A stretch of 64,000 nt of DNA from Candidatus Tayloriibacteriota bacterium. Its GTDB lineage: Bacteria; Patescibacteriota; Minisyncoccia; Phycocordibacterales; PALSA-1337. This document shows, piece after piece, positions 5,138 to 27,565 of this stretch. Under the pieces are notes generated by a model. That model did not search any database, was not told the origin of the DNA, and saw nothing but the letters and a program-made list of their open reading frames with translations. Position numbers and translations under genes: made by a program. Position 1 is the first letter of the stretch, and the number at the start of each line of letters is the position of its first letter. Where the stretch lies: the NCBI GenBank assembly GCA_903857825.1, contig CAIOGI010000006.1:25132-89131 (forward strand), in the 5' to 3' direction.

Positions 5138-5211
5138 GGCGTAGTGGCGAAGTTGGTTAACGCAGCAGTTTGCAAAACTGCCATTCACCGGTTCGAGCCC
5201 GGTCTACGCCT
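5138..5211 (+). tRNA. tRNA-Cys (anticodon GCA), 74 nt, no encoded CCA
   Basis: Acceptor GGCGTAG/CTACGCC, anticodon stem GCAGT/ACTGC with loop TTGCAAA and T arm ACCGG-TTCGAGC-CCGGT. Confidence 0.85.
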
Positions 5212-5226
5212 CCCAAATTATTAATT

Positions 5227-5913
5227 ATGAAAAATCAAGATGACATTGATCCAAATGTCTTTTGGTATATTGTTGGATACATCGCAACTGATGGTTCACT
5301 GAGCAAAGATGGAAGGCATGTATCGATCACGTCAAAAGACCATGAACATTTAGAAAAAATCAAGAAAGAGCTTGGTATTACTTCTAAAATTACAAAAAAA
5401 TGTCGTGCCCGAGGAAAAGAAAAAATATATTCGGTAATACAGATAGGTGGCATATCAAATTATCGTTTCCTTAATTCTATTGGTATGTATTCCAGAAAGA
5501 CATGGAATATGGGTCCAATCAAGATTGACGAAAAGTTATTTGGTGATTTTCTAAGAGGTGTTATAGATGGTGATGGATGTATTTATTCTTGGAAGAATAA
5601 GAGCAATAATCATAAACAATGGTCTTTGAGAATTTCTGGAACAGCACCAAAGTTTATTGAATGGTTATTTGAGCACATACAGACAACTTTTATGGTACAA
5701 GGTAGATTACATATTGACAAAAGAAATAATCGATCAGATACATACATAATTAAATTTGGTAAATTAGCCACTCAACGTATATTGAGAGACATTTATTATG
5801 AAGATTGTTTCTGTTTAGATAGAAAATTAGTTAAAGCGAATGAGTGCTTGCAAGATGAAGCAAAGATGATAAAGTATGGTGGAGTAATATGCTCGGGTGG
5901 CGAAACTGGTTAG
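5227..5913 (+). CDS. LAGLIDADG-family homing endonuclease (two-motif, monomeric type)
   Basis: Two LAGLIDADG motifs: FWYIVGYIATDGSLS and LRGVIDGDGCIY. The listed ORF start 5170 lies inside tRNA-Cys, so the start is more likely MKNQDD at 5227. The 3' end overlaps tRNA-Leu by about 23 nt. Confidence 0.75.
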   Translation: MKNQDDIDPNVFWYIVGYIATDGSLSKDGRHVSITSKDHEHLEKIKKELGITSKITKKCRARGKEKIYSVIQIGGISNYRFLNSIGMYSRKTWNMGPIKIDEKLFGDFLRGVIDGDGCIYSWKNKSNNHKQWSLRISGTAPKFIEWLFEHIQTTFMVQGRLHIDKRNNRSDTYIIKFGKLATQRILRDIYYEDCFCLDRKLVKANECLQDEAKMIKYGGVICSGGETG

Positions 5914-5975
5914 ACGCAAAAGACTTAAAATCTTTCGACCGAAAGGTTATGCGGGTTCGACTCCCGCCCCGAGCA
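5891..5975 (+). tRNA. tRNA-Leu (anticodon TAA), 85 nt with long variable arm
   Basis: Acceptor GCTCGGG/CCCGAGC, anticodon stem AAAGA/TCTTT with loop CTTAAAA, variable arm CGACCGAAAGGTTAT and T arm GCGGG-TTCGACT-CCCGC. Confidence 0.85.
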
Positions 5976-6121
5976 CTGATCTGTGCCCCATAAAAGTAAC
6001 CCCTATTTACCAGTTTTTTGCTGTTTTCTGCTTGTTTGTATTTGTTTTACATAGTAAAATATAGTGTAGTATTGATTTTGTATTTTAGATTCAATTTTAT
6101 TATTAGTTAATTTTATATACA

Positions 6122-8926
6122 ATGGAACATTTACCATTACTAGCAGAAAAGAAAAGATATGAGGAATTATCAGGTGCTGAAAAACTAAAAGTTTTACAAA
6201 AACTTTACCTTGAGCAAACGGGTAAAAAACTTATGAATGTTTCTAGCGCTAATGAACCTGAATATATGAATCCCGTAGGAAAAGCTCCGGGAAGGTATGT
6301 AAGAGTAAGACCATATGAAGGAAGAGAGGCATTAGTTATGTTACCATCTGAGAATGTAGATGAGATAGATGGAACTCCGCCAGAAAACCAAACTTCTGAA
6401 ACAACAGCAGAAGAACCTTCGACAGATACTGTTGCTAAAGATACTATACAAACGCAAGGAATACAGACACCCACTTCACCGTTTTCTGAAATAAACGAAC
6501 CTAAACCGGACGTTCAAAATGAACCCATACCAACAACCGCGACTGGAAAAGAAAATTTGCCATATCAAATGTTTGATAATATTGGTCTTGGCTTTAATTA
6601 CGGCAAAGCTGGTGAAGGTCAGCAAATGGCAGATGAAGACAAACTGGAACTAGCTAATACAAGATGGCAAGTAAAACCTGATATTGCTTTAACAGAATCA
6701 GGTTCGGCTGACAAAATAGAAGATCCAAAAGAAAAAGCAGAAACCAAAGAACAATCTCCAAATACAGAAAAATTTCTATCTCCAGAAGATATTGCTAAAG
6801 AAATAGATGCATTTGAAATCAAAGAAGGAAATTCTATTGTCTTTCACTATGCGGACAAAGACAGTAAAGTAAAAATTATAAGGATAGATGGTGGAAGCAT
6901 TATATATAAAAGCTTTCTTAATCGCAAAGGCACTAATGAAGAAACGGCGAGTAATGAAAAGTCCTATGATAAAGACGGGGAAAGTTTTAAACGCGAACTC
7001 AAAGATCTTTTAGTTAATAAAGATGAGAAAATTATAAGCATTACCATAACAACTGCTGATAATTCAGAAAAAATAGATGATGGGCAGACTACAGAAGAGG
7101 TGTCACCTAAAGAATTTACTGCGGAAAAACTTCATATTGAAGATATTGCTAATGGATCAAAAAGAGTAAAAATTGAAGGTATGAATAGTGCTGGTGTAAC
7201 TACAACTTACACTCTACACAAAGGCACTCGTGCTGGAAAACCATTTTACTCAATTAAGACAGTAAATAGAGTAGCTTCTGGTTCAATACACCATGATAGT
7301 ACAGATGAACTTTTGAAATATCTTAATAACGACAAACTTACAAATGTTGTGATTAGTAGTGAAGAAGTAGTAATGCTGGAACCTGAAAAAGAAAAAGAAG
7401 TGCCTGATGAACCAGGACCTACTCCATCATTGGCAGGAGACCAACCCGTTAAACCTACACCGCAAGCTCCAAGTGGTACAGTTCCATTATCATCATTGTT
7501 TCCTGGAGGGGCAGTAGACTTTGGAACATTCAAACAAGCAACAGCAAAGACCGAACCTGCTACATCATTACCAGGAGACCGACCCGTTAAACCTACACCG
7601 CAAGCTCCAAGTGGTACAGTTACATTATCATCAATGTTTCCTGGAGGAGGAGTAGTGGACTTTAAGAAAGAAGAAGGACTATACGAAAAAGCAACACTTG
7701 CAGATATCAGACTAAGCTCAAAAAATAAAAGCTTTTTTGGTAAAATGTCAAAATTTGCACAGTCAATAGCGTTAAAACTCTATGAAGGCTCGGGAGTTAG
7801 TGACTTAGTTGCTAAATTTAGTATATGGAATGAGCAAGGCGGGATAAACGCTTTTGAAAAAATAGCAGTAACAAGAAAGGAAGAGATTGATGAAATTGAA
7901 CTTTTAAGCAAAGCTTTAGACCAGTCAAGGATAGCTATAAACAGTTCGATAGCATCACTTAAAGCAAAAGGATTATCAGGCGCTGAATCTCTTCAGATTG
8001 AACTTAGAAATATAGATAATGAAAAGAAAAAAATAGAAACAAGAAAAGATAGAATTAAAACTAAATTTGATAAAGCATACAATACAGCAAAAGTTTATTC
8101 AAATGATCGTGATGCCATAGCAAATAGAGTCATTGATCGATACAATGAAAAACTAGCACCGATAGAAGAACACTTAGAAACTCTTCAGGAGCAAAGAGTA
8201 AAACTCGAGATTCTTACCGTAGCAAGTCAAGAAGAATATGCACTCAAGCAAGAAGAAATTGATAGTTTAGTAGCAGAAAGAAATAACGAGGTTGAAAGAT
8301 TAAAAAATGCATCTAAAATAGTGATAACTGGTGCCCTTAAGAGACTTGATGGGAACATCAATTCAATACGAGAAAGTATAAAACTAGGTAGAGAAAAGTT
8401 GGAGGAAGAAAAAGTTGAAATAAATCGTCAAATTGCCAAAGCTGAAGAAAGAGCAAATCCATACAGAACAAGGAGGAATGAATTTACAAGAATGAAATCC
8501 CCTCTTATTGATATAAATGTGCCACCGATTTCAATAGAAAAAGATAGCAGGAAATTAAATGATATAGGAATCAGAACGGGAGGTGTTGTTGATACTAGTT
8601 TGCAACCAGAAATAAGTGTGACGCCAGAAACTCCCCCTGATGTGAAAAGATATGGTAAAGAGTGGGTGTCTATATCTAGCCATATCGGAGGCTGGAACAA
8701 ATATATAGAAGGGATAAAAGACGCCAACATAAATAAAGACCTATTCAAAATAGATATTAAAGGGTTATATTTCAATCATCCCAGGATAACTGGTGATCAA
8801 CTAGTTAGACGTGAGGCATTCCTCAAAACTCTTCAGATTCATATGGAAGCAATAGCAAAAAAGAATAGGGGCAGCCTTACCACTGAGACGATAAAGAAGG
8901 TTATCGCCGATTTTCCTAAAAATTAA
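6122..8926 (+). CDS. Large hypothetical protein (934 aa) with an acidic, T/P/E-rich N-terminal half, an internal tandem repeat and a C-terminal coiled-coil region
   Basis: Long ORF. An approximately 85-bp direct DNA repeat at about 7426..7510 and 7561..7645 encodes ...GD(Q/R)PVKPTPQAPSGTV(P/T)LSS(L/M)FPGG.... Heptad-like K/E-rich segments follow. No recognisable catalytic motif. Confidence 0.5.
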   Translation: MEHLPLLAEKKRYEELSGAEKLKVLQKLYLEQTGKKLMNVSSANEPEYMNPVGKAPGRYVRVRPYEGREALVMLPSENVDEIDGTPPENQTSETTAEEPSTDTVAKDTIQTQGIQTPTSPFSEINEPKPDVQNEPIPTTATGKENLPYQMFDNIGLGFNYGKAGEGQQMADEDKLELANTRWQVKPDIALTESGSADKIEDPKEKAETKEQSPNTEKFLSPEDIAKEIDAFEIKEGNSIVFHYADKDSKVKIIRIDGGSIIYKSFLNRKGTNEETASNEKSYDKDGESFKRELKDLLVNKDEKIISITITTADNSEKIDDGQTTEEVSPKEFTAEKLHIEDIANGSKRVKIEGMNSAGVTTTYTLHKGTRAGKPFYSIKTVNRVASGSIHHDSTDELLKYLNNDKLTNVVISSEEVVMLEPEKEKEVPDEPGPTPSLAGDQPVKPTPQAPSGTVPLSSLFPGGAVDFGTFKQATAKTEPATSLPGDRPVKPTPQAPSGTVTLSSMFPGGGVVDFKKEEGLYEKATLADIRLSSKNKSFFGKMSKFAQSIALKLYEGSGVSDLVAKFSIWNEQGGINAFEKIAVTRKEEIDEIELLSKALDQSRIAINSSIASLKAKGLSGAESLQIELRNIDNEKKKIETRKDRIKTKFDKAYNTAKVYSNDRDAIANRVIDRYNEKLAPIEEHLETLQEQRVKLEILTVASQEEYALKQEEIDSLVAERNNEVERLKNASKIVITGALKRLDGNINSIRESIKLGREKLEEEKVEINRQIAKAEERANPYRTRRNEFTRMKSPLIDINVPPISIEKDSRKLNDIGIRTGGVVDTSLQPEISVTPETPPDVKRYGKEWVSISSHIGGWNKYIEGIKDANINKDLFKIDIKGLYFNHPRITGDQLVRREAFLKTLQIHMEAIAKKNRGSLTTETIKKVIADFPKN

Positions 8927-8950: not shown

Positions 8951-9250
8951 ATGAATTCGACAACAAAACAAAGTGCAACAAATAGTGACGATGAAAAAGA
9001 TTTTGATAAAGAAATTGATAATCTTTTAGAAAAGTCAAAAACTTTAAAAAAAGAAGTGGATGACTTGAATAAAGATTCTAGCAAAATTACAAGTGATGCA
9101 AAAAATGCTGTTGAGAAAAATTCAAAAAGTATAGACAAACTATGCAACGACTTGGACAAAGTTGATGAAGATGCTAATAATGATATCGATCTATTAATAC
9201 TTAAACAGGCTGAGGATTTGTCAAAACTTAAGGAAGAGGATGCGGAATAG
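8951..9250 (+). CDS. Small hypothetical coiled-coil protein (99 aa, D/K/E-rich)
   Basis: The ORF directly follows the 934-aa gene and has low-complexity charged composition. Coding status is uncertain. Confidence 0.35.
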   Translation: MNSTTKQSATNSDDEKDFDKEIDNLLEKSKTLKKEVDDLNKDSSKITSDAKNAVEKNSKSIDKLCNDLDKVDEDANNDIDLLILKQAEDLSKLKEEDAE

Positions 9251-9933: not shown

Positions 9934-10208
9934 GATATGTAAAATAAGCATAACTTTAGTTATGCGTTTTTACATTTATGAGGGCTTGAAGGCTAAAGCT
10001 ATACCAAGTTACTCCATGATTTAAGCCATATTTTATGTGCTTTCTTTGGCTATAATTTTAAACCCCGTTTTGCTATTGACATCTATATCAATATATGCTA
10101 GTATAACTATCAGACAGTTCCCCAAAACAAACCTAGATGCCTGTGTTGGGTATCAAGGTAAATATAACAATTCAGTGTGGGGAGTTGCCAACGGAGAAAG
10201 AACACACC

Positions 10209-10844
10209 ATGACAGTAAATGAAATCTTTGCCACGACAGCGACGGTTGCAGCCAGCGTTGTCCTAATGCTGGCATCCCAGCGCTACCAATCGTGGGAGGC
10301 TGGGAGGTGGCAAAACAAAGGACTCGACATGGCTCGAGTGACAAACAGTCCTGTGGCGATGGCGCCTACAAGCGTAACTCCCCCAACGGTAACTTACGTC
10401 ACAAACACAATCACCACACCCGCAACGCCTGCCGTGGTGGTGCCAACACCCCCACCAGTGACGGTAACCAACACAATCTTTACGACAAACGTCGTGGTGG
10501 TTACCACAACAAACGTGGCATCGGTAGCCTCACCGGTTAGAACAGGAACAACACCGAGTGGTGTGACCTGGCCTAATGATCGCTTGTCTGACAGGGTTGT
10601 CAGTTACAACAGCGTCACGAATGATGTAGTAACTGTCCCCCCGGGAGAAACTTTTCTCCTCGAGCCAGCAACTAAGCTCGATCTCAGTACGGCCTTCAAC
10701 CGCCAACTCCGATTCGCAAAGGCGGGGCAAGAGTTAGTGGCTGGCATGAGTAGCCCATACTTTCGTTCGCTTCCGGGGCCAACGACAGTAATGAACCCCG
10801 GATCGACGCCGATCCAGCTGAAGGTTCGAGTTACCCGACGGTAG
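10209..10844 (+). CDS. Membrane-anchored Thr/Pro/Val-rich hypothetical protein encoded on a GC-rich (about 52%) island
   Basis: GGAG Shine-Dalgarno 9-12 nt upstream of ATG at 10209. N-terminal hydrophobic anchor ATTATVAASVVLMLA, then TPPTVTYVTNTITTPATPAVVVPTPPPVTVTNT.... The GC content is far above the roughly 33-37% background. The listed ORF starts at 10137, but there is no RBS there. Confidence 0.6.
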   Translation: MTVNEIFATTATVAASVVLMLASQRYQSWEAGRWQNKGLDMARVTNSPVAMAPTSVTPPTVTYVTNTITTPATPAVVVPTPPPVTVTNTIFTTNVVVVTTTNVASVASPVRTGTTPSGVTWPNDRLSDRVVSYNSVTNDVVTVPPGETFLLEPATKLDLSTAFNRQLRFAKAGQELVAGMSSPYFRSLPGPTTVMNPGSTPIQLKVRVTRR

Positions 10845-10883
10845 CCGAACCCTGCGCGAGAACACCTCGCGCTAAACCAAAAA

Positions 10884-10927
10884 AGGACAGGAGTGCCATC
10901 ACATGTGGCCCCTGTCCTCTTTCTTTT
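10884..10927 (+). terminator. Rho-independent terminator after the GC-rich island gene
   Basis: AGGACAGG...CCCCTGTCCT hairpin followed by CTTTCTTTT. A second hairpin GCGCGAGAACACCTCGCGC lies at 10854..10872. Confidence 0.55.
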
Positions 10928-10948: not shown

Positions 10949-11248
10949 CTAAAATGTTGCAGTCTGTCCCAAACTACTAAATACAAACCGAACAATGCCA
11001 TAAGCTGAAATCATTATTGCCATACCTACCAAACCCCATAATATGTGCGTTTGCCCGGTTTTTCTTCTTTCTGGATCTTCCCCACCCATAATATATCCGA
11101 TTATACCCCAGATGAACATAAAGGTTGCCAGTACGAACATGAACTGTACTATTGGAGAAATAATATTATCTACTATTTTTAGAATTATCAAATCTGTAGC
11201 TGCTGAGCTATTATTCGCCGCTTCTGCAACTTTAGAGAAGATATTCAT
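10949..11248 (-). CDS. Small two-helix membrane protein, VirB2/TrbC-like pilin paralog 1
   Basis: Core FMFIWGIIGYIMGGEDPERRKTGQTHILWGLVGMAIMISAYGIV: two hydrophobic helices split by a short charged loop, shared with the four ORFs upstream. Confidence 0.55.
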   Translation of the reverse strand: MNIFSKVAEAANNSSAATDLIILKIVDNIISPIVQFMFVLATFMFIWGIIGYIMGGEDPERRKTGQTHILWGLVGMAIMISAYGIVRFVFSSLGQTATF

Positions 11249-11278
11249 TAATATAGCAAAATATTAACTGTATTTGGA

Positions 11279-11659
11279 TTATCTAACAGTAGTTGGATCG
11301 ATAACTTTTGGAAATTGGTTTTCTGTTGGAGTATTATTGCCTGTACCAAATGAATTCTTTAGTATTGCGACTAGACCCCAGATAGAAAGGATTACGAATA
11401 GACCAACAACACCGTATAGAATACGCAACCCCCCCTCTTTTCTTTTATCTTCTGAACCAGCAATAAGATATACAAAAACATTTACAACAATCCATATAAC
11501 TGCTAGAGATATAACAATAGTTATAAATGAGTTTCCAAGAGAAGTAAATTTACCAAAGATACTGTCTTGACCAGTACCATCAATTTTAGTTATAGTATTT
11601 TGAGCAAACACTGCCACCGGAGCTAATAATGAAACCGCAATTGCAATTATTTTTTTCAT
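11279..11659 (-). CDS. Small secreted two-helix membrane protein, VirB2/TrbC-like pilin paralog 2
   Basis: Signal peptide MKKIIAIAVSLLAPVAVFA; core IVVNVFVYLIAGSEDKRKEGGLRILYGVVGLFVILSIWGLV. Confidence 0.6.
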   Translation of the reverse strand: MKKIIAIAVSLLAPVAVFAQNTITKIDGTGQDSIFGKFTSLGNSFITIVISLAVIWIVVNVFVYLIAGSEDKRKEGGLRILYGVVGLFVILSIWGLVAILKNSFGTGNNTPTENQFPKVIDPTTVR

Positions 11660-11748
11660 ATTTTTTATTTAATAATAATACTTTTATTTACTAATTGTAA
11701 CAACATATAGGACAAGAAGCAATCTATGAATTGTGGAAAAGAGATAAG

Positions 11749-12165
11749 CTATATCCAGTCTTCGTCTTCGTTGTCATCTGGTGGTGTAGTCTGATTAAAA
11801 TTCCCAAACGGTATTGTGGGTGGTGTATTCTGCAATTTAAATGTATTAGTCAATATGAATACCAAGCCCCATATAGATAGTATTACAAAGAAGCCGATAA
11901 GGCTGTACATAACATATAGACCAGCTTCTTTTTTTGCTGCAGGATCATCACTTCCATATATGAAATACTTGAATACATTCCATACGAACATCAGAACTGC
12001 AAAGCTAATAATCAAATATATAGCATATTGAAAATAACCTGTAATTAATTGCATTAGACTTCTGAGATCAGTCACAGAACTTGGGGTTATCGCTGCTACA
12101 GCAGAAGCAAATGCAGGTGCTGATAACAATATCACTGCCATAATTGTTTTTTTCATATTATTCAT
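11749..12165 (-). CDS. Small secreted two-helix membrane protein, VirB2/TrbC-like pilin paralog 3
   Basis: Signal peptide MKKTIMAVILLSAPAFASA; core LMFVWNVFKYFIYGSDDPAAKKEAGLYVMYSLIGFFVILSIWGLVFIL. Confidence 0.6.
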   Translation of the reverse strand: MNNMKKTIMAVILLSAPAFASAVAAITPSSVTDLRSLMQLITGYFQYAIYLIISFAVLMFVWNVFKYFIYGSDDPAAKKEAGLYVMYSLIGFFVILSIWGLVFILTNTFKLQNTPPTIPFGNFNQTTPPDDNEDEDWI

Positions 12166-12174
12166 ATTATATTA

Positions 12175-12543
12175 TTAATTTCGATTAAACACACTACTGT
12201 CCACAACTCCAGCCGAGGATAGAGTATTTTTTAATATTTCTACGATGACCCTGGCACTTATTAAAATGGCCAATCCCACAATTATATACAGTAGCCACAT
12301 CTTTGCTTCTTTTAATTTATCCGTATTACCTTGAGCCATAACAAATTGGAATCCAACATATATTAAGGCGAGTATAGAGAATGCAACACCGATATACATT
12401 GCTATATCAACCGCTAGGTAAATAACCCCCTGAACACTCTCAACCTTTAGTGGATTTGTTAATTTATTACTTTCAACAGCAAAACTAACAGAAAATACTG
12501 AAAGAAAAGTGATGAAAATGAATGATGTTATTATTTTTTTCAT
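12175..12543 (-). CDS. Small secreted two-helix membrane protein, VirB2/TrbC-like pilin paralog 4
   Basis: Signal peptide MKKIITSFIFITFLSVFSVSFA; core ALIYVGFQFVMAQGNTDKLKEAKMWLLYIIVGLAILI. Confidence 0.6.
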   Translation of the reverse strand: MKKIITSFIFITFLSVFSVSFAVESNKLTNPLKVESVQGVIYLAVDIAMYIGVAFSILALIYVGFQFVMAQGNTDKLKEAKMWLLYIIVGLAILISARVIVEILKNTLSSAGVVDSSVFNRN

Positions 12544-12549
12544 ATTATT

Positions 12550-13017
12550 TTATTGACCCACTAGTGTACCTGTAACAGACAGGAATTCAGGGGTAAGTAT
12601 CCATTTTAATAATGTAGTGACGATAAACCACGCCATGAGAGCCCAAACAAAACCTTTTACTGCACTGATCATGATTTTCTTCGCTTTGTCGATATTACCC
12701 TTTGAACCAGTCATGTATAGAAAACCAGCATAAGCGAGAAGTCCCACCATAACTGGAATTGATATACCAAATGCCCAATTTATCAAATACTTCACCATTG
12801 AGACGAGATTTGCGAAATTACAAACAACCTGACGTTTACTCTCTCCAGGAGTCACCACTCCATCACATTGAACCCAACCACTATAATCAAGGGTTGTTGA
12901 GGGTGCAGGTACTGCTGGTGGAGGTGAATTGACAGAATAAACCAAAGGTGACAATGAATAACTACCTAATATAAGAAGGACGAGTGCAGCAAACTTTAAT
13001 ATAAATCTTTTATTCAT
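12550..13017 (-). CDS. Small secreted two-helix membrane protein, VirB2/TrbC-like pilin paralog 5 (Pro-rich, two Cys in the N-terminal part)
   Basis: Signal peptide; SPPPAVPAPSTT...C...C; core GLLAYAGFLYMTGSKGNIDKAKKIMISAVKGFVWALMAWFIV. Overlaps the upstream SBP gene by 8 nt. Confidence 0.55.
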   Translation of the reverse strand: MNKRFILKFAALVLLILGSYSLSPLVYSVNSPPPAVPAPSTTLDYSGWVQCDGVVTPGESKRQVVCNFANLVSMVKYLINWAFGISIPVMVGLLAYAGFLYMTGSKGNIDKAKKIMISAVKGFVWALMAWFIVTTLLKWILTPEFLSVTGTLVGQ

Positions 13018-14308
13018 TTCTATTTAATAAAATATTAAATTCTTCACTTCCAGATTGTATTGCTTCTCTGGCGTTCTTTCTACCACTTGTTATCAATTCT
13101 GTAATATTTTGAAGAATTTTATTTGAATCAATTCTTCCTATATCCAACCAATTTCTAGATACTAATGCAGAATTGTTAAATATTGAAAGATAAGGATCTG
13201 TTGAACCGCTAGCTATTATATCCCTCCTAACTGATGGCAAATATGTCATAGAAACCAAAGTATTGAGTGAACTCGCTTCTATCAAAGAACTCAGTATGGT
13301 ATAAGTAGCATTTACATTTGCTGCGCTTCTTACAATTGAAATACCATACATATTTCCATAAACAACTCTGCCGGATGAATTCCTTATCTGTGGAAATGCT
13401 GTTACATCAAAATCAAGATTTGGATTCTTTCCTTTAATTTCACTTATTTCAGAAGCAAAACCAAAGTAAGTAGCGAGATTTCCAGAAAGGAAAGAATTTT
13501 TTGTATTTGTTAATGAACGATTCCAAGAATAATTTTCATTTGAAGGGTTTGAGAATTGTGTAAAGAAATCAAGAGCTTTTATTGATGAATTTGATCCTGA
13601 GTAACCCTGATCACCTAAAGCGCTGGCGATAAGGTAATCTTTGTCTCTAAATGTAACTGGATTTCCATATTGCATTAGTATTGTACCTAGTATCTCTCTT
13701 GCATGTACAATATTATTGAACTCTCCCAAAGCTATAGCACTTCTTTTTATATTAGAATTTACATCTTTTTTAGTTATCTTCTTATTAATTTCAGTAAATT
13801 CATCCCAATACTTTGGAGGTATTGCTATACCCGCATTAGTAAATGTATCTCTATTCCAATACATAATCAAAGGATCTTCTATAAAAGGAAGAGCTAGAAC
13901 TCCATTTTTCCCCAGATATAACTCCGCCTGTTGAATAAAAGTATCTCTGAAAGATCTTTCGGATAAGGCCTCATAAGGTATCGGAATTATTTTATCTTCA
14001 TATTTATAGACATAGTCTTGTGGTATAAGAATAGCATCAGGACCTTGTCCTCTAGCCAATGCTTCAATAAACTTTTTGTCAAAATTTGTCTCTTCTACCT
14101 TAACATAGGTAATTTTCAAAGCTTCAGCTCGAGTCTGATTAATTTTATTTATATAAGCATCAAAGGAAGAACTAGGATAAGTACCCCAAATAGTTATTGC
14201 TGGTAATTCATCTTTTGCAGATCCACCCCTAAATGTTGCAAAAGCTATAACGCCACCGACTATACAAACAACAAAAACAGCTGTTAATATTACTTGAAAT
14301 TTACTCAT
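13010..14308 (-). CDS. Extracellular solute-binding protein, family 1 (MalE/UgpB-like), membrane-anchored and orphan (no permease or ATPase nearby)
   Basis: N-terminal TM anchor, then ITIWGTYPSSSFDAYINKINQ...ITYVKVEETNFDKKFIEALARGQGPDAILIPQDYV...LPFIEDPLIMYWNRDTF...PPKYWDEF, the characteristic order of SBP_bac_1 motifs. ATGA overlap with the methyltransferase gene upstream. Confidence 0.7.
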   Translation of the reverse strand: MSKFQVILTAVFVVCIVGGVIAFATFRGGSAKDELPAITIWGTYPSSSFDAYINKINQTRAEALKITYVKVEETNFDKKFIEALARGQGPDAILIPQDYVYKYEDKIIPIPYEALSERSFRDTFIQQAELYLGKNGVLALPFIEDPLIMYWNRDTFTNAGIAIPPKYWDEFTEINKKITKKDVNSNIKRSAIALGEFNNIVHAREILGTILMQYGNPVTFRDKDYLIASALGDQGYSGSNSSIKALDFFTQFSNPSNENYSWNRSLTNTKNSFLSGNLATYFGFASEISEIKGKNPNLDFDVTAFPQIRNSSGRVVYGNMYGISIVRSAANVNATYTILSSLIEASSLNTLVSMTYLPSVRRDIIASGSTDPYLSIFNNSALVSRNWLDIGRIDSNKILQNITELITSGRKNAREAIQSGSEEFNILLNRNE

Positions 14309-14829
14309 GGTTTTTTAAATATAATACCATAATGATGATCCCCTGCATCAAATCCCTTTTCTAATTGAAATCCGTTTTTTTGAAAAATACCTTCTGCGAA
14401 TAGTCTAGGCACCAAAGTTTTTGGACTTAAAGGACTTCCCGCATCCCAATCAATAACCATTACCTTTCCTCCTGATTTTAATATTCTTTTAATTTCTAGA
14501 GCTAGATTATCTCTATCCTCGGCGGCTATTTGAAATAAGGTATTAGAAAGTATAACTCGATCTGCTATTGCTTCTCGAAGTTTAGTACCACCAATCTTTT
14601 CTATATTACCCCAAACAACTTCAATGTTATGCAGACCAACAAGCCCTGCAGAATTCTTTAACTTATTTAATAAATCTTGTTGTACATCTACAGCATATAC
14701 CCTACCAGATGGACCAGCACTCTTTGCTGCTTCTATAGAATAGAAACCACTTCCCGCTCCAAGATCAACAACTTTCATACCATTAGCTATTTCAAATAAT
14801 GCAATATTTTTTTGTGGGTCGGAGAACAT
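14305..14829 (-). CDS. Class I SAM-dependent methyltransferase
   Basis: Motif I VVDLGAGSGFYS; downstream acidic motif AVDVQQDLL. Confidence 0.75.
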   Translation of the reverse strand: MFSDPQKNIALFEIANGMKVVDLGAGSGFYSIEAAKSAGPSGRVYAVDVQQDLLNKLKNSAGLVGLHNIEVVWGNIEKIGGTKLREAIADRVILSNTLFQIAAEDRDNLALEIKRILKSGGKVMVIDWDAGSPLSPKTLVPRLFAEGIFQKNGFQLEKGFDAGDHHYGIIFKKP

Positions 14830-14924
14830 GAAATTATTATAACATATCTAAAAAATAGTAAACACATATAAGTTGTGGTTTGGTGGGGGCTAGCCAACAA
14901 ACATGTAGTTTACTATTTTCTAGT

Positions 14925-17408
14925 TTATAAACAGATAAGTGAAGCCAACGAATCCCCATCTCGGAGTTTCATCACTCTCACGCCCTGTGTTGAACGTCCA
15001 AGTGTAGGAATTTCAGAAAGATTTACACGGATAACCTGACTCTTCTTTGACATAGCTACCATTTCTTCTATCTCATCCGTAACAACCTTTGCAGCAATCA
15101 ATGGACCAGTCTTGTCAGTAACATTCATAGTTAGAATACCTGAACCACCACGGTTCTGAACTTTGTATTCATCAAGTTTCGTCTTCTTTCCATAGCCGTG
15201 CTCACCCATTACGAATAGTTGTGGATTCTTTGCATCCTTTGGCACAATATCGGCACTAATCACAGCATCATCCTTACCAAGCTTTATAACGCGTACACCA
15301 GCGGCATTTCTACCCATTTCGCGAACATCACTTTCCTCAAATCTGATGGACTGACCATCTCGTGTAGCTATAACAATATTATCATCCTTAGAGACGAATG
15401 AAGCTGACATAAGTTCATCTCCATCGTCTAGAGTAATAGCTATAAGACCAGAACGTCGTACATCGTGGAAATGCTTTGCTGAACTTTTCTTTCCTGTACC
15501 ATTCTTCGTAACCATCATAAGTGCAAGATTTTCTGCCTCCTTTTTATTCTTTGGCATTGGCAAAATAGAGGTGATCTTTTCCCCTTCAGCAAGCGACAAG
15601 AAATTCATAACTGACTTCCCTCTTGTTGACTTTTTTCCTTCTGGAATATCGTACATTTTTATCTGATATGCCTTTCCCTTATCAGTAAAGAACAAAATGT
15701 CATTGTGTGAACTAGCATATATAAGGTGTGTAATAAAATCCTCCTCCTTTGTATCTAGATCTACAACACCAACACCACCTCGCTTCTGCTGTTTGTATTC
15801 ATCAGGATTTGTACGCTTTATATATCCTCCTTTTGTAAGTACAAGCACGCTTTCTTCATCGGCGATTAGATCCTCAGGATTAAAGTCCTTGAGAGTATGT
15901 TTGATGAGTCTGGTTCTTCTTTCATCACCATATTTAGCCTTAATCTCAACAAGCTCATCTTTTATAATATTTCGTACCTTTCTATCACTTCCTAGAATTT
16001 CCTTTAGTTTTTCTATAAGTTCCTGAACTTCTTTTAATTCTTCTAATACTTTTTTTCTTTCAAGACCTGCAAGCTTTTGCAAACGCATTTCGAGAATAGC
16101 TGTAGCCTGCTTTTCTGAGAACCTAAACTTCTTCATCAAATTTGCATGTGCCTCAATAGCATCCTTTGATCCACGAATCAAAGTAATGATCTCATCGATA
16201 TGATCAAGCGCCTTCTTCAAACCAATAAGTATATGTTCTCTTTCTTCAGCCTTATTTAAATCAAACTTTGTACGTCGGCGTATAACCTCGATTCTGTGAG
16301 TTATGAATTCTTCAAGAAAAGTCTTGAGGGCAAGCGTCTGTGGTACACCATGCACAAGAGCAACCATGTTTACATGGAATGTTTCTTCTAATTGAGTGTG
16401 TTTATATATATAATTTAGAACCTTTTCTGGGTATGCTCCGTTCTTTAAATCTATAACAATCCTAAGTTCCTTGTCGGACTCATCTCTAAGGCCCTTTATG
16501 CCATCTACAAGCTTTTCTCGCACAAGATCAGCGATACGCATAATAAGCTCAGCTTTGTTAACACGATAAGGTATAGAGGAAATAATGATCTGGAATTGAC
16601 CCTTCTTGTCTTCAACTATCTCTGCCTCCCCACGTACTAGAATACCTCCGCGACCAGTAGAATATGCATGATGAATGTCTTTTTCACCATACATGATACC
16701 TCCAGTTGGAAAGTCCGGACCTTTTATAAACTGTAATAGATCGTTAGTTGTAGCGTCTTTGTTTTCAACAAGATGAACAGTGGCATCAATGACTTCTCCA
16801 AGATTGTTTGGTGGAATATTTGTCGCCATACCGACAGCAATACCTAGTGTTCCATTTAAAAGAAGATTCGGCACCGTAGTAGGAAGTACAGTAGGTTCAT
16901 TTCTAGTGCCTTCATAGTTTGGTCGGAAGTCTACAGTGTCCTTATCAATATCTCGAAGTGTTTCTTGAGCTATCTTTGACATCTTTGCTTCGGTATATCT
17001 ATCGGCTGCGGCATTGTCTCCATCAATAGAACCAAAGTTTCCCTGACCTATAACAAGCGGATAACGCATACGAAAATCCTGTGCCATGTTTACCATACTT
17101 TCATATACAGCAACAGTCCCGTGAGGGTGATAGTTACCTGTCACGTCTCCAACGATCTTTGCTGATTTTCTAGTCTTAGCACCAGCTGTTAGTCCGAGTT
17201 CATGAAGAGTAAAGAGTATTCTTCTGTGTACAGGCTTTAATCCATCTCGAACATCTGGAAGTGCACGGTTAGTGATAACTGACATTGCATAATCTAGATA
17301 AGACTCGCGCATTTCAGTGCTTATATTTCTCGCGATAATTCCCTCTCTTGGATCTCTCGGTGTGGGTTCCTGATTATTCTTATCTGATGCTTCGGGTTTT
17401 TTAGACAT
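14925..17408 (-). CDS. gyrA: DNA gyrase subunit A (type IIA topoisomerase A subunit)
   Basis: [26 protein letters not shown]; catalytic Tyr region [15 protein letters not shown]; C-terminal beta-pinwheel repeats. GyrA versus ParC cannot be separated with certainty. Confidence 0.85.
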
Positions 17409-18114: not shown

Positions 18115-18540
18115 ATGAATGAAAAATATTTTAAAGATTTTGATAAATGGAATAATAAATCTAAAGAGATTGAATCAAAAGAGTTCGAGAACTTCTTTTA
18201 TGCTCGAGAAATCTGGTGGTGTGCTTTAGGCGTGAATATTGGCTCAGAACAAGATGGCAAAAATGATTCATTTGAAAGACCTGTATTGATTGTTCGACGA
18301 ATAAGTCGGGACTCGTGCATAATTTTACCATTCACAAGTAAAATTGTTGATAGTGACTATCGCGTAACTACAGAGAGCACCGGTATTCAAGCACAAGTCG
18401 TATTATCTCAAATAAAGACAATTAGCAGTAAGCGTCTATTAAGGAAAATAGGAAAAATTAAAACAATAATATTTTATGAGATACTAATAAAATTATCATT
18501 TATAATACTTGGTGTTTTGAAAGACGAAACCCCACCATAA
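18115..18540 (+). CDS. PemK/MazF-family endoribonuclease toxin (type II toxin-antitoxin toxin)
   Basis: EIWWCALGVNIGSEQDGKNDSFERPVLIVRRISRDSCIILPFTSKIVD...VLSQIKTISSKRLLRKIGKI matches the PemK/MazF pattern. No antitoxin-sized ORF is evident immediately upstream. Confidence 0.75.
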   Translation: MNEKYFKDFDKWNNKSKEIESKEFENFFYAREIWWCALGVNIGSEQDGKNDSFERPVLIVRRISRDSCIILPFTSKIVDSDYRVTTESTGIQAQVVLSQIKTISSKRLLRKIGKIKTIIFYEILIKLSFIILGVLKDETPP

Positions 18541-18612: not shown

Positions 18613-18921
18613 CTATCTACTCCCCGCTTCGACAGTCACATTGTCCTTCGAATATTCTGCTTTATTTGATCCAAAAAGAAGATTCTTTATATCAGACCAA
18701 GCACCAAAGGCAGATGCGGTTAGAGAGGATACTGGTGTTTCAACTATTACCTCCTCACCATCTTTAATAACATTTTCAGCAATTACTGAAGAGGAATTAA
18801 AACCATAAGATGCCATCCAGCCAGCAAAAACTAAAAATGTAAATGAGAAAGAAACAATAAAAGCAAAACGCTTCTTTACGTGATGAGGTTTTGTTTTTAA
18901 ATTTTCTAAATAGTCATTCAT
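18613..18921 (-). CDS. Small hypothetical membrane protein (102 aa)
   Basis: One TM helix FAFIVSFSFTFLVFAGWMA; no motifs. Confidence 0.4.
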   Translation of the reverse strand: MNDYLENLKTKPHHVKKRFAFIVSFSFTFLVFAGWMASYGFNSSSVIAENVIKDGEEVIVETPVSSLTASAFGAWSDIKNLLFGSNKAEYSKDNVTVEAGSR

Positions 18922-18955: not shown

Positions 18956-19594
18956 CTATTCCTTTGATGAATCAAGTAGCATGATATCCGCCTCCTTGCC
19001 TTCTAGATCCTTTTTCTTCAATGTTAGCTTGGCTTCTGCCTTTGGACTTTCTCCAGCCTCCTTCAAAAATACTTTTAGAGCTTCCTTTGCGCCGATATCA
19101 CCGTAATGCATAGGGATAATGATTTTTGGTTCTAGAGATACAGCAAGCTTATATGCCTTAACGGGATCGAGAACTCCCTCACCACCTATTGGTACAAAAA
19201 GGATATCTATCTCGTCTAATGCTTCAATAGTTTCATTTTTCAATTCAGGAGTATTGATAGCTCCAAGAAAACAAATGTTCATATTTTCGAGAGATACTGT
19301 ATATATAGTATTTATCAAATCTTTGCCACCGTACTTTGACTCTGAAGGAAGACCCTTTATAAAAACCTCCTTTACTTCGTATTCACCTGGACCACTTATA
19401 ACAAAGGGTGTCTTGTCTCCATGACTGACCTGATCTACGCCATTAAAATCCTCGTGATATGTAGTAGAGAGGACAATGTCTGCACCAAAGCGACTAGGCT
19501 TAAGCTTTGAATCCTTTGAAATAGGGTTAAAGGCAAGCGTGGTATCACCAAACTGAACTTTGAAAAACTCCGCTCCGAAATATGTAATAATCAT
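18956..19594 (-). CDS. Metallo-beta-lactamase-fold metal-dependent hydrolase (UPF0173-like)
   Basis: MIITYFGAEFFKVQFGDTTLAFNP...DIVLSTTYHEDF...IPMHYGD resembles the MBL-fold YtkL/UPF0173 family. Confidence 0.65.
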   Translation of the reverse strand: MIITYFGAEFFKVQFGDTTLAFNPISKDSKLKPSRFGADIVLSTTYHEDFNGVDQVSHGDKTPFVISGPGEYEVKEVFIKGLPSESKYGGKDLINTIYTVSLENMNICFLGAINTPELKNETIEALDEIDILFVPIGGEGVLDPVKAYKLAVSLEPKIIIPMHYGDIGAKEALKVFLKEAGESPKAEAKLTLKKKDLEGKEADIMLLDSSKE

Positions 19595-26056: not shown

Positions 26057-27565
26057 TTATGGACCATAAGGATCAGCTGATTGTGATAATACAGTACCTG
26101 TTAGACCGCCTGGGATTGCATTTCCGCTATATGTCGGATCAACTCGCACGCAAGTCGTTTCACTTATGGCGGTATATATCGGTGGTTGATTCATTATGGT
26201 AACAGTCTCTATATAATTATTAGTTTCTTTTTGAATCCAGCCATTATTACATCCATTTTGATGTCGAATGAGTGCAAAGGTATTACTTTCTGAACCACCA
26301 GCTGCCACATTACGAACTGAGTATTTCACCCACTTGTCCCATCTTATAGTCTGTACTGTTTGTATACTCCAGCTAGCATTTCCACTTGCATCTGAAGTTA
26401 AAACTTTCCCAGTCAATGGGCCCGTGCCACCAGTTATTTGAAGTGAGGTTGCCTGAAGGCCTGTTGCCTTGACAGTTCCTACCACCTCTAGTTTAGTAGA
26501 TGGATTCGCAGTTCCAATTCCAACATCGCCAGTAATAGAAGCACTCCCTATTGTAGTTAAGTTACCAGAGACATATTGACTACCTACTGCCAAACCCTTA
26601 TAGGCGCCATTATCTGTTGCCAATAATCTTAGCCAACCATCATCTGTTCCTGAATAACCATTTCCATCAAAATAATAATTCCCAATCTTCATATTTCCTA
26701 CTACATCCAACTTTGCTGTTGGATTCATTGTGCCTATTCCAACATTACCACTCGGATTGACCACCAAACGGGCTTGGCCATTCACCCACATCATCATTGA
26801 ATTTGCTGCTCCACCAGTACCATCATGAGCATCACCTATAAATTGTGTATTCGCTGTATTTGTCCACAAACCTCCTGTATTTGCTGAATCACCAGATTGA
26901 ATTCTACCTCCGACTGTTGCGCCTACATTATTTGCAACTCCATTTCCTGATACAGCTAACTTTGTTGTCGGTGTTTGAGTACCAATTCCAACATTACCAG
27001 ACAGATTTCCATTATATATATCTGTTCCATTTGTACTAGTTGCCCATTTTGAAGAACCTCCTGAACCAGGTACTGAGGATGGAGTCGCCCAATATACAGT
27101 ACCTAGACTATCTGCAGAAGTAAGCACCTTGCCTGGTCCAGGAGCATAAACTACATTATTGAGTGTACGAGTTCCAGAAACCTTTATATTTCCTCTTATC
27201 CAAGAATCACCATTAACATCTAGAGTAACTGAAGGCCATTGTCCTGTAGCATAATTAGGTACACCAGCACCGATCTTTCCATACATGACTAGATCAGCAC
27301 TTCCAACTATAGTTTTAAAAAGAGATATCCCACTTGGAACAGCAAAAGAGTACCCGTCAATTAAATTCTGCAAAGAACTAGTTCCTACTGCCATACCTCC
27401 AACTTTTGCTTGTCTAGAAACCCCAACATTTATCGGTGCATCTGTATTACTATTTGGTGGGCTTGAAGGCGCTGGAGTCCATGCTGCAGATGCGTAACTT
27501 ATACCCAGTGCAAGTATTAGTGCCAAGGTTACTATTTTTATATTTTGAATGTTTATATTTTTCAT
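26057..27565 (-). CDS. Secreted Gly/Thr/Ser-rich surface protein with repeated N(V)GIGT..P(T/S)xKL(A/D/E)V(V/S)G motifs (fibre-like)
   Basis: Signal peptide MKNINIQNIKIVTLALILALGISYASA. Three copies of GNVGIGTQTPTTKLAVSG, GNVGIGTMNPTAKLDVVG and GDVGIGTANPSTKLEVVG. Confidence 0.55.
   Translation of the reverse strand: MKNINIQNIKIVTLALILALGISYASAAWTPAPSSPPNSNTDAPINVGVSRQAKVGGMAVGTSSLQNLIDGYSFAVPSGISLFKTIVGSADLVMYGKIGAGVPNYATGQWPSVTLDVNGDSWIRGNIKVSGTRTLNNVVYAPGPGKVLTSADSLGTVYWATPSSVPGSGGSSKWATSTNGTDIYNGNLSGNVGIGTQTPTTKLAVSGNGVANNVGATVGGRIQSGDSANTGGLWTNTANTQFIGDAHDGTGGAANSMMMWVNGQARLVVNPSGNVGIGTMNPTAKLDVVGNMKIGNYYFDGNGYSGTDDGWLRLLATDNGAYKGLAVGSQYVSGNLTTIGSASITGDVGIGTANPSTKLEVVGTVKATGLQATSLQITGGTGPLTGKVLTSDASGNASWSIQTVQTIRWDKWVKYSVRNVAAGGSESNTFALIRHQNGCNNGWIQKETNNYIETVTIMNQPPIYTAISETTCVRVDPTYSGNAIPGGLTGTVLSQSADPYGP

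Follow-up and report, generated by a model that had tools for sequence, protein, structure and literature searches.

A conserved operon of Taylorbacteria-like bacteria joins an oligosaccharide-type solute-binding protein to five VirB2-like pilin paralogs

We hold with moderate confidence that seven genes from an ultra-small CPR bacterium (Candidatus Tayloriibacteriota, Patescibacteria) are a core-genome operon of a large, Taylorbacteria-like lineage of Paceibacteria, and that they encode a heteromeric VirB2-like surface or membrane assembly that carries an oligosaccharide-type solute-binding protein (SBP). In several lineages, the SBP is fused to the first of the pilins, and therefore these two proteins very probably act as one surface device.

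The seven open reading frames are co-directional, on the minus strand of the window (the whole 64-kb stretch of DNA that we analyzed). The gene positions, the two overlaps, and the upstream gyrA are exactly as in the original prediction:

14925..17408, minus strand: gyrA, the conserved upstream neighbor (Pfam)
14305..14829, minus strand: small cytoplasmic class-I SAM-dependent methyltransferase (174 aa; Pfam)
13010..14308, minus strand: SBP of family 1 (MalE/oligosaccharide type; 432 aa; Pfam SBP_bac_1/8)
12550..13017, minus strand: pilin paralog, position 1 (155 aa; PF18895, 29.6 bits)
12175..12543, minus strand: pilin paralog, position 2 (122 aa; PF18895, 37.6 bits)
11749..12165, minus strand: pilin paralog, position 3 (138 aa; PF18895, 35.4 bits)
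11279..11659, minus strand: pilin paralog, position 4 (126 aa; PF18895, 32.9 bits)
10949..11248, minus strand: pilin paralog, position 5 (99 aa; PF18895, 31.1 bits)

The stop codon of the methyltransferase overlaps the start codon of the SBP by 4 nt (ATGA), and the end of the SBP overlaps the start of pilin 1 by 8 nt (ATGAATAA). GyrA is part of a conserved syntenic block and lies outside the functional unit. The operon has these regulatory elements:

14836..14879, minus strand: predicted promoter P1 (ACCACA at 14874-14879; -10 box TATAAT at 14836-14841)
11694..11737, minus strand: predicted internal promoter P2 (TCCACA at 11732-11737; -10 box TACAAT at 11694-11699)
10879..10917, minus strand: intrinsic terminator closing the operon (hairpin GGACAGG...CCTGTCC, then TTTTTT)

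The -10 box of P1 ends 6 nt before the ATG of the methyltransferase, so the mRNA from P1 is probably leaderless; it would encode the methyltransferase, the SBP, and pilins 1-3, with coupled translation. (TATAAT-N6-8-ATG is kept upstream of the methyltransferase in relatives.) P2, which has a -35-like TTGCTT and a 17-nt spacer, lies in the 89-nt gap that precedes the penultimate pilin and would boost pilins 4 and 5. The strong terminator that would end the unit lies 32 nt past the last stop codon, and its RNA fold is at -24.6 kcal/mol (z = -4.3 relative to shuffles). A consensus scan missed this terminator because its loop is long.

P1, before the methyltransferase, and P2, before pilin 4, have an upstream element in common, TCC(A/C)CA. 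We scanned 81 loci (2.3 Mb) for the module motif TCC[AC]CA-N28-32-TAnA[AC]T and found it concentrated at the P1 and P2 sites; 46 of the 77 gene-proximal matches fall at the P2 site, and P2 is the sole match in the 64-kb window. Of 60 arrays, 49 have CCACA in the gap that P2 occupies here, as compared to a background of 0.077, and its spacing to the -10 box is 34-37 nt in 44 of 47. The P2 motif was also found at 35% SBP identity. Since the common motif is almost confined to these two sites, co-regulation appears to take in the methyltransferase as well.

This layout is kept across hundreds of related species. Searches with the SBP gave at least 589 related stretches among the GTDB species genomes, and 1065 clusters at 50% identity (E ≤ 1e-30). 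Pilin genes follow the SBP in all 56 of the related loci that have at least 3 kb downstream, and the modal count is five; all 56 loci with enough flank keep the methyltransferase-SBP-pilin order. In 75 of 80 loci, the gene immediately preceding the SBP is the methyltransferase, with the 4-nt overlap in 25 of 65, and gyrA is upstream in 54 loci. Among the four distant representatives that we sampled (35-37% SBP identity), the methyltransferase is present and the methyltransferase-SBP-pilin order is kept in all four, and gyrA is upstream in three. The methyltransferase matches the Pfam families Methyltransf_31/25/11, as expected for the small SAM-dependent enzyme that had been proposed. It matches no NCBIfam family at or above the cut-off, and its best PDB sequence match is 3dh0, an uncharacterized SAM methyltransferase.

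In-frame fusions of the SBP to pilin 1 are found in at least four lineages (L013/L018/L022; L060; L054/P0241; and P0258). The C-terminus of the SBP is joined to the mature N-terminus of pilin 1: fusion proteins P0086, P0241, P0258, L060, and L054 keep the position-1 signature, and the position-1 signal peptide is gone. P0086 was found in independent assemblies. The fusions arose independently, because each fused group is closer to its nearest unfused relatives than to the other fused groups. The suggestion that an SBP was recruited to a pilin module is thus strongly backed. This link appears to be undescribed, as the literature that we searched on PF18895 arrays does not mention it. We propose that the SBP domain would lie outside the membrane, held by pilin 1, and the two-helix hairpin of pilin 1 would give the same topology whether the SBP is fused or separate.

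The AF2 model of the SBP (pLDDT 86) has the same two-lobe fold as family-1 (MalE/UgpB-type, cluster B/D) ABC SBPs such as CpMnBP1 (PDB 4r9f, which is also the best HMM match). The closest PDB folds are SBPs for manno-, malto-, and sophoro-oligosaccharides (TM 0.65-0.72), so by its model this fold is of the sugar-binder type, but it is only 12-18% identical to solved SBPs. It falls in the same Pfam families as family-1 ABC SBPs and, like them, is rich in conserved aromatic residues, many of them invariant. Residues 6-24 form a conserved N-terminal hydrophobic segment that is a putative anchor or cleaved signal peptide, with a candidate cleavage site (A-F-A/T) at residues 22-25. Conservation is 0.54 in this segment versus 0.52 in the globular domain and 0.18-0.48 in the signal peptides of the pilins.

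Given its standard MalE-like fold and conserved aromatic residues, this protein might be an ordinary ABC-importer SBP, with a canonical sugar ABC transporter elsewhere, that merely has its transcript in common with an unrelated pilin array. Sources that annotate it as an ABC binding protein for sugar or glycerol-3-phosphate fit as well. However, as had been noted for this locus, a cognate permease or ATPase is missing: we saw no recurrent family of either kind within ±10 kb, at this locus or at 80 related loci. Unlike family-1 ABC SBPs, this one has a pilin-like hairpin as its coupled or fused partner; the stop and start codons of the SBP and the pilin overlap or nearly abut, their adjacency is kept in the distant representatives, and the fusions arose in at least four lineages. 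An ordinary importer SBP is already strongly disfavored, and we consider it quite improbable.

All five small proteins exceed the Pfam gathering cut-off for PF18895 (T4SS_pilin; 29.6-37.6 bits versus 26.6 bits), which upholds their identification as VirB2/TrbC-like pilin paralogs. Only position 2 has a weak match to TrbC/VirB2 itself (PF04956, 23.4 bits, below the cut-off of 27.9). All five match NCBIfam NF045849 weakly (14.7-26.6 bits); the cut-off is 40, so they are not members. A profile search against PDB sequences and a fold search did not link them to the solved VirB2, TraA, or TrbC pilins, and the structure model of the pilin is poor (pLDDT 60). Small proteins with two transmembrane helices could instead be holins, bacteriocin immunity proteins, or another such family, but this is extremely unlikely: besides the PF18895 scores, Pfam gave no holin or immunity family, PHROGs matched just one of the proteins, to two families whose function is unknown, and the context is a housekeeping chromosome rather than a prophage.

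Some details of the original description do not hold, although the operon and its coordinates do. Each small protein has two hydrophobic helices with a short charged loop between them, as described, but the signal peptide is present in only four of the five (position 5 and its orthologs have no hydrophobic leader), and the loop motif G(S/G)(E/D)D is in three paralogs and not in the other two. Position 1 has an extracytoplasmic N-domain with a conserved cysteine pair (C51...C66, CDG...C-F), followed by the two-helix PF18895 core. Position 3 has an acidic C-terminal tail in addition to its signal peptide and two helices. In every paralog, the second transmembrane helix is the most conserved part. 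Position 4 is the most conserved paralog (mean ortholog identity 52%, reaching 99% where the SBP is at 94%; column identity 0.72 in the second helix), and because it also has its own promoter, it is our candidate for the major subunit.

It was also claimed that the five sequences had diverged almost completely, which is overstated, as pairwise identity is 21-44%. This low identity would fit an array for antigenic or host-range variation, in which a single pilin exists in several interchangeable versions, diversified to evade or to match different hosts. PMC12102498 also suggests this idea, and cites the VirB2 paralogs of Bartonella and Anaplasma, which offer a precedent. However, orthologs in other species are specific to each position: the best match is at the same array position in 177 of 180 cases (35/36 for position 2, and 36/36 for both position 3 and position 5). 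The order is fixed (1-2-3-4-5), and some conserved features are specific to a position, such as the cysteine pair in 1 and the missing signal peptide in 5. The dN/dS of the pilins is 0.09-0.16, versus 0.05 for the SBP, which indicates purifying selection. In Southlakia epibionticum, six PF18895 genes lie in an essential T4SS cluster and each is essential (PMC10633639). Judging from these comparisons, the five paralogs are ancient, non-redundant, and under purifying selection rather than a diversifying family. A variation array is largely refuted for this clade, and we think it very improbable.

Consistent with the original prediction, no VirB4, VirB6, or VirD4 was found among the open reading frames of the window that were scanned with Pfam, or in the 10 kb past either end. 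The same holds for VirB3/PrgI and TrsD, and none of these T4SS components is among the recurrent families sampled within ±10 kb in 80 relatives. A window of 64 kb that lacks T4SS genes is weak evidence as to the whole genome. That such genes are missing around the module in over 80 genomes could point to a VirB4-independent membrane complex of five two-helix proteins (ten transmembrane helices) that never forms a filament. It would be the membrane partner of the SBP (a translocator or receptor), and the two would make up a device for uptake or sensing that depends on the SBP and stands in for the missing ABC permease. OpuA and GlnPQ are SBP-TMD (permease) fusions of Gram-positive ABC importers, and the SBP-pilin fusions resemble them; the strong conservation of the second transmembrane helix fits too. 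Against the assembly that we prefer, a 45-kDa domain fused to a pilin would be hard to pack tightly into a filament, unless it were at the tip or the base or were present at low stoichiometry. Finally, VirB4 is reported missing from a sizeable share of Taylorbacteria (about 10 of 26 assemblies in a published survey), but these scores derive from incomplete MAGs. Also, the operon has no energizing ATPase or other transporter component, there is no known transporter made of PF18895-type two-helix hairpins, and the PF18895 proteins of other genomes are found within T4SS clusters, where they are co-essential with VirB4 and VirB6 (PMC12102498). We consider the VirB4-independent complex unlikely.

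In the heteromeric VirB2-like assembly that we prefer, pilin 4 would be the major subunit, with pilins 1-3 and 5 in minor or adaptor roles, by analogy with sets of major and minor (pseudo)pilins. A putative VirB4-type T4SS, encoded at another place in the genome, would probably polymerize or energize the assembly. The SBP may capture a host-derived glycan or oligosaccharide (the putative ligand), for adhesion or uptake, and the cytoplasmic methyltransferase may modify the cytoplasmic loops of the pilins or the captured ligand (putative substrates).

Tandem divergent arrays of VirB2-like PF18895 pilins in Patescibacteria have been published (Wang 2023, PMC10633639; Quinonero-Coronel 2025, PMC12102498; and PMC12857230), so this kind of array is known and the label "uncharacterized" is not supported. 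The original interpretation is supported as to the identity of the pilins and the recruitment of the SBP, but not as to diversification or novelty. A published survey of patescibacterial arrays lists 441 of them, with 2-11 genes each, and in cultures of Paceibacteria, PF18895 pilins belong to the most highly expressed of the secreted proteins. The array of S. epibionticum (SEML1_0014-0019) is similar to ours in that both lie on the chromosome of a monoderm CPR bacterium and consist of small PF18895 proteins in tandem; these have a signal peptide and a two-helix core, and the paralogs are about 25% identical to one another. But the S. epibionticum array adjoins VirB6 and VirB4, while the module has no T4SS gene within tens of kb, is tied to an SBP (with recurrent fusion to a pilin) and a methyltransferase, and has five positions in a fixed order and a motif of its own at two promoters.

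Like VirB2, TrbC, and TraA (PF04956), the module pilins have a signal peptide, followed by two hydrophobic helices that form a hairpin with a short basic loop. In the canonical case, one pilin gene lies in a T4SS operon together with VirB3-B11, whereas the module has five distinct paralogs that fall below the PF04956 cut-off, with one sub-threshold match and no match to solved pilins. Mbov_0395 and ICE_MMCAP2_0565 of mycoplasma ICEs (NF045849) are also small two-helix proteins of monoderm T4SSs.

Two analogies involve unrelated families. T2SS and type IV pili use sets of major and minor (pseudo)pilins (GspG-K; PilA with FimU/PilVWXE). As in the module, these are about five non-redundant paralogs in a conserved order, with one member more conserved or more highly expressed, but their (type IV) pilin fold and assembly machine are different. 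FimH is a two-domain pilus tip adhesin, with lectin and pilin domains. In FimH, as in OpuA, GlnPQ, and the SBP-pilin fusions, a ligand-binding domain is covalently joined to a subunit that inserts into a filament or a membrane machine, although in most genomes with the module the two parts are separate, translationally coupled polypeptides.

The seven-gene minus-strand operon of the original prediction is real, far beyond chance: its genes lie at the coordinates listed here, and their order is conserved across relatives. We number the pilins in transcription order.

Genes of the module and the preceding gene (whole-protein PF18895 scores)
14925-17408, minus strand: gyrA, directly upstream of the methyltransferase gene
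14305-14829, minus strand: methyltransferase (MTase), 174 aa; class-I SAM methyltransferase (Pfam)
13010-14308, minus strand: solute-binding protein (SBP), 432 aa; SBP_bac_1/SBP_bac_8 (Pfam)
12550-13017, minus strand: pilin 1, 155 aa; PF18895, 29.6 bits
12175-12543, minus strand: pilin 2, 122 aa; PF18895, 37.6 bits
11749-12165, minus strand: pilin 3, 138 aa; PF18895, 35.4 bits
11279-11659, minus strand: pilin 4, 126 aa; PF18895, 32.9 bits
10949-11248, minus strand: pilin 5, 99 aa; PF18895, 31.1 bits

The stop codon of the MTase overlaps the start codon of the SBP (ATGA), and the SBP overlaps pilin 1 by 8 nt (ATGAATAA). The SBP scores 52.9 bits against SBP_bac_1 and 51.5 bits against SBP_bac_8 (Pfam cut-offs of 26 and 27). 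The MTase exceeds the Pfam cut-offs for Methyltransf_31, 25, and 11, so it belongs to the class-I SAM superfamily. Its matches in NCBIfam are all far under the cut-off (for instance, 72 versus 263 for the arsenite MTase), and the nearest solved protein in PDB, 3dh0, is itself uncharacterized.

All five small proteins pass the curated gathering cut-off of 26.6 bits for PF18895 (T4SS_pilin), with scores of 29.6-37.6 bits, and this Pfam check upholds the assignment to a VirB2-like pilin family. PF04956 (TrbC/VirB2) matches pilin 2 alone, at 23.4 bits, which is under its 27.9-bit gathering cut-off; Pfam gave no match to PF04956 for the other four. NCBIfam gave sub-threshold matches only, to a mycoplasma ICE pilin-like family. 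That these are really members of some different small-protein family is disfavored by the profile searches. We also tried holins and other phage families, and PHROGs gave none.

Hydropathy and alignment support two hydrophobic helices in all five proteins, as predicted, but a signal peptide in only four: pilin 5 has both helices and no leader. Similarly, the charged loop motif that was ascribed to all five is present in three but not in the other two. "Diverged almost completely" was an overstatement, as the paralogs are 21-44% identical to each other. Five tandem PF18895 genes with low mutual identity do make this a pilin array as defined in PMC12102498 (at least two PF18895/VirB2-like genes, in tandem or one gene apart, with low identity). 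A profile of 56 pilin sequences, compared to the sequences in PDB, gave only spurious matches to membrane proteins and no conjugative pilin. An AlphaFold2 (AF2) model, whose alignment held just the five window paralogs, is a helical hairpin (H33-66 and H70-104) with pLDDT of 60, and Foldseek found nothing at E < 1 with it. Because we see no link to solved VirB2-type pilins and the structure model is poor, the putative relationship to VirB2 rests on the Pfam family definition, the one sub-threshold match to PF04956, and the literature on PF18895.

To ask whether the module is conserved, we scanned one genome per GTDB species and found at least 589 related stretches of SBP. The close homologs are full-length, all of about 430 aa, and from Patescibacteria. 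From these we retained 80 loci plus flanks of 10 kb on both sides (SBP identity to the window of 46-63%), which are labeled as Taylorbacteria, Nomurabacteria, Parcubacteria, Paceibacterota, or Minisyncoccia, and used a pilin HMM built from the window's genes. The synteny comparison that had been proposed as a check came out in favor of the operon: pilins lie directly 3' of the SBP in all 56 loci with at least 3 kb downstream (five pilins in 38 and six in 14), and the array starts after the SBP in 17 of 17 loci that are shorter but extend at least 450 nt past it. (In six loci the pilin HMM also matched the opposite strand, about 2-2.4 kb upstream; those matches were left out of these counts.) The MTase is directly 5' of the SBP in 75/80 loci, and gyrA precedes the MTase in 54. 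MTase and SBP overlap by 4 nt in 25 of 65 loci; between SBP and pilin 1 the median gap is 2.5 nt. A conserved gap of about 84 nt precedes the penultimate pilin; the other intergenic gaps are tiny.

An exhaustive search of cluster representatives (50% identity) identified 1,065 SBP clusters at E ≤ 1e-30. Nearly all of the best 150 of the 1,065 are full-length and colinear from about residue 1, with 35-53% identity. We sampled four distant representatives (35-37% SBP identity), and all four have the order MTase-SBP-PF18895. Three have sufficient upstream DNA, and in these gyrA and Lactamase_B_3 are present too; the array is complete in two, both of which have the gap before the penultimate pilin. 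Our evidence for the SBP-pilin association thus extends down to about 35% SBP identity. The module is thus an old block of the core genome in a large lineage and not an island.

In the window, two more minus-strand genes lie upstream of gyrA: a 102-aa single-pass membrane protein without a family (18613-18921) and Lactamase_B_3 (18956-19594). Both belong to the conserved syntenic block; they recur in 26-30 of the 80 loci, as well as in distant representatives. Many of the MAGs that carry the module are titled "uncultured Candidatus Saccharibacteria" and one (locus L004) "Burkholderiaceae." These titles are probably generic or wrong, as the SBP and gyrA context fits Taylorbacteria-like Paceibacteria.

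In five of the 80 loci (L013, L018, L022, L060, and L054) and in two cluster representatives (P0241 and P0258), the SBP and pilin 1 are a single polypeptide of 560-696 aa. In it, the full SBP is followed by a short linker, which replaces the pilin's signal peptide, and by mature pilin 1 with its Cys-loop motif and both helices. There are four groups of fused forms, and each is closer to its nearest unfused relative than to the other fused groups, so the fusion arose repeatedly. For instance, fused L060 is 84% identical to unfused L058, and its identity to the other fused forms does not exceed 60%. The fusion cluster P0086 also includes P0394, likewise 560 aa long, which comes from another contig and from other databases. 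(Apparent MTase-SBP fusions in L070 and L057 are artefacts that reflect the choice of the longest ORF: the N-terminal extensions show no similarity to the MTase.) The topology of the fusion is consistent, with the SBP outside, helix 1 running out-to-in, a cytoplasmic loop, and helix 2 running in-to-out. We take the fusions as classical gene-fusion evidence that the SBP and pilin 1 probably interact directly, and they bear out the idea of a repurposed SBP.

The fusions also disfavor the view that the SBP is an ordinary ABC receptor. An ABC importer should have a BPD_transp_1 permease and an ATPase nearby, and apart from the SBP this operon encodes nothing but the MTase and the pilins. The window's sole ABC ATPase is at 683-1453, and the next gene, just past the window's end, is of the FtsX family.

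What might the SBP bind? Its AF2 model is confident (pLDDT of 86) and shows the two-lobe fold of periplasmic binding proteins, and the top folds in PDB are manno-, malto-, and sophoro-oligosaccharide SBPs (TM of 0.65-0.72, 12-18% identity). By sequence profile, the nearest solved relative is the mannobiose-binding CpMnBP1. Conservation across the SBP is 0.80 in the N-terminal tail, 0.54 in the hydrophobic segment, and 0.52 in the globular domain, as compared to 0.18-0.48 for the signal peptides of the pilins. The N-terminal segment could anchor the SBP permanently, or it could be a signal peptide that is cleaved at a conserved G-x-x-x-F-A/T site. In either case a monoderm cell must retain the SBP, and pilin 1 is the obvious candidate for holding it.

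By comparing orthologous intergenic regions, we found that 49 of 60 arrays carry a motif, TCC(A/C)CA, in the gap that precedes the penultimate pilin (versus 0.077 in the background), where it lies 34-37 nt upstream of a TAnAAT -10 box. It is kept there at 35% SBP identity. In the window, this site (P2, 11694-11737) combines the motif with a -35-like TTGCTT and a 17-nt spacer; the motif has no other match in the 64 kb. The same motif (consensus TTGTCCCCA) also lies in front of a TATAAT box whose end is 6-8 nt from the ATG of the MTase (P1), so the message there is probably leaderless. Of 77 gene-proximal matches to the motif in 2.3 Mb of related loci, 71 are at P1 or P2 sites. The last pilin is followed by a strong hairpin and a T-run (-24.6 kcal/mol, z = -4.3). 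A generic scan for promoters and terminators found no more sites than in shuffled sequence and missed both this terminator and the motif; both were found from the orthologous intergenic regions. Given the shared motif at P1 and P2 and the terminator after the last pilin, the unit is P1, MTase, SBP, pilins 1-3, P2, pilins 4-5, and terminator, and the MTase is part of the pilin unit and not of gyrA.

Convergent with this operon is a 235-aa Thr/Pro/Val-rich ORF (10137-10844, plus strand) that is locally GC-richer (0.41 versus about 0.35) and has no match in Pfam, NCBIfam, or PHROGs. In 42 related loci, its place is taken by an unrelated convergent protein of about 335 aa with no Pfam match.

The pilins were originally described as a diversifying family, but our data do not fit this. 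Across 36 five-gene arrays, the best BLAST match in other genomes was at the same position for 177 of 180 pilins. Orthologs average 39-52% identity, as compared to 27-37% between positions. With position-specific HMMs, arrays read 1-2-3-4-5 in 34 loci and 1-2-3-4-4-5 in 12, so the order is fixed. Pilin 1 has an invariant Cys pair within its N-terminal extracytoplasmic domain; pilin 5 has no evident signal peptide (in the window's protein); and pilin 4 is the most conserved position, at times more conserved than the SBP. In the closest pair with unsaturated dS (0.75), the pilins have a dN/dS of 0.09-0.16 and the SBP 0.05; dS is saturated in most pairs, so these ratios rest on a few close pairs. 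Positional orthology, dN/dS, and the essentiality of all six paralogs in Southlakia epibionticum (6/6 in a Tn-seq table, PMC10633639) argue for a heteromeric assembly and against antigenic or host-range diversification. In particular, antigenic variation of the pilins is disfavored by their positional orthology. The published view of these arrays as possible cassettes for antigenic variation needs to be revised: the arrays of this clade are fixed sets of distinct subunits.

No match to the VirB4, VirB6, or VirD4 families was found among the window's ORFs that we scanned with Pfam, as originally reported. The 10 kb past each end of the window contains housekeeping genes only (gyrB is at the edge of this flank), with no VirB4 or core T4SS components. 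Neither T4SS nor ABC-permease families were among the recurrent neighbor families that we scanned within 10 kb of the 80 related loci, and in two related gyrB contexts we saw neither dnaA nor T4SS genes. Overall, the genes that would mark a T4SS pilus locus (VirB4, VirB3/PrgI, VirB6, and TrsD near the pilins) are absent from the scanned neighborhood.

Outside the operon, the window is housekeeping chromosome from a CPR bacterium with low GC content (infB, rbfA, hisS, dnaG, rpoD, rpoB, rpoC, smc, and an RNB-domain ribonuclease, among others). rpoB and rpoC are normally an adjacent pair. Here, rpoB (45390-48566) and rpoC (39031-42711) are separated by two minus-strand genes (42736-45342): a RhuM-family gene (PF13310, 44278-45342) and one for a 458-aa protein (42736-44112) that is membrane-anchored or secreted and matches nothing in Pfam. 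Toxin-antitoxin or mobile-type genes are scattered through the window (18115-18540, 36207-37079, 44278-45342, 55440-55838, 58233-58979, and 61739-62251): a PemK toxin, KilA-N, two of the RhuM family, a nucleotidyltransferase substrate-binding/Pol-beta pair, and DUF3800. A free-standing LAGLIDADG_3 homing-endonuclease-like ORF (5170-5913, plus strand) lies between tRNA-Cys (5138-5213) and tRNA-Leu (5891-5976), and as called by longest ORF it overlaps both tRNA genes. A 934-aa protein with no Pfam family (6122-8926, plus strand) has a duplicated segment of about 26 residues, GD(Q/R)PVKPTPQAPSGTV(P/T)LSS(L/M)FPGG, and a long charged C-terminal half that is probably coiled-coil; a highly charged 99-aa ORF (8951-9250) follows it. 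A 502-aa secreted protein with no Pfam family (26057-27565, minus strand) has repeated GNVGIGT..P..KL.V.G motifs and may be a repetitive surface or fibre-like protein.

We are confident that the SBP and the pilins are coupled and that the paralogs are not redundant. We give roughly even chances to a fuller model, in which pilin 4 would be the major subunit, as suggested by its having the highest conservation and its own promoter, and the other pilins would be minor subunits or adaptors. Pilin 1 would hold or present the SBP on the cell surface, where the SBP would bind a glycan or oligosaccharide, plausibly from the surface of a host cell, for adhesion or capture. Assembly would be by a VirB4-type T4SS that is encoded elsewhere in the genome, since most Patescibacteria have one (PMC12102498).

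The main alternative is that the hairpins never leave the membrane and serve as the SBP's membrane partner, without any T4SS. The complete absence of T4SS genes from the neighborhood and the bulk of the fused SBP would fit with this, and about 40% of the "Taylorbacteria" assemblies in Table S1 of PMC12102498 are scored as VirB4-negative. However, these are incomplete MAGs, and VirB4 is scored as present in about 16 of the table's 26 such assemblies. C7867-002, which carries the module, is scored there as VirB4-negative with only 206 annotated CDS, so its score carries no information. We consider a purely membrane role unlikely. Another idea is a self-contained organelle for import or docking, with VirB2-like hairpins that are detached from any T4SS serving as a conduit or stalk for an SBP that captures host oligosaccharides. 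This is a long shot. If true, it would be the missing route by which these Paceibacteria, poor in permeases, take up nutrients, and conjugative-pilin proteins would for the first time be seen repurposed as partners of a solute-binding protein.

The array itself is of a known kind, so "uncharacterized" was not accurate. VirB2-like pilins were reported in 1,948 assemblies of Patescibacteria, with 441 tandem arrays of 2-11 genes that average 25% identity (Quinonero-Coronel et al. 2025, PMC12102498), and S. epibionticum has six such genes (SEML1_0014-0019) in an essential T4SS cluster (Wang et al. 2023, PMC10633639). A tandem run of divergent pilins of the VirB2 type is therefore nothing new for a CPR genome. 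In metatranscriptomes of Paceibacteria cultures, T4SS pilins are among the most highly expressed secreted proteins. A 2025 review describes the system as unique among monoderm T4SSs and speculates that it is a conduit for uptake from the host. In the sole genetically tractable Patescibacterium, the T4SS and its VirB2-like array are essential; the function is "completely unknown," and uptake from the host has been speculated (PMC11665869, PMC12857230). The papers that we searched are silent on an SBP, and when we searched the literature on VirB2 or pilins and solute- or substrate-binding proteins in Patescibacteria and Parcubacteria, we found no link to an SBP. What appears to be new is a pilin array that lies away from the T4SS locus and is genetically joined to an oligosaccharide-type SBP and a MTase. 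A sugar-type SBP that is apparently co-transcribed, translationally coupled, co-regulated, and repeatedly fused with this pilin family offers a concrete and testable route to the function of the essential pilin arrays.
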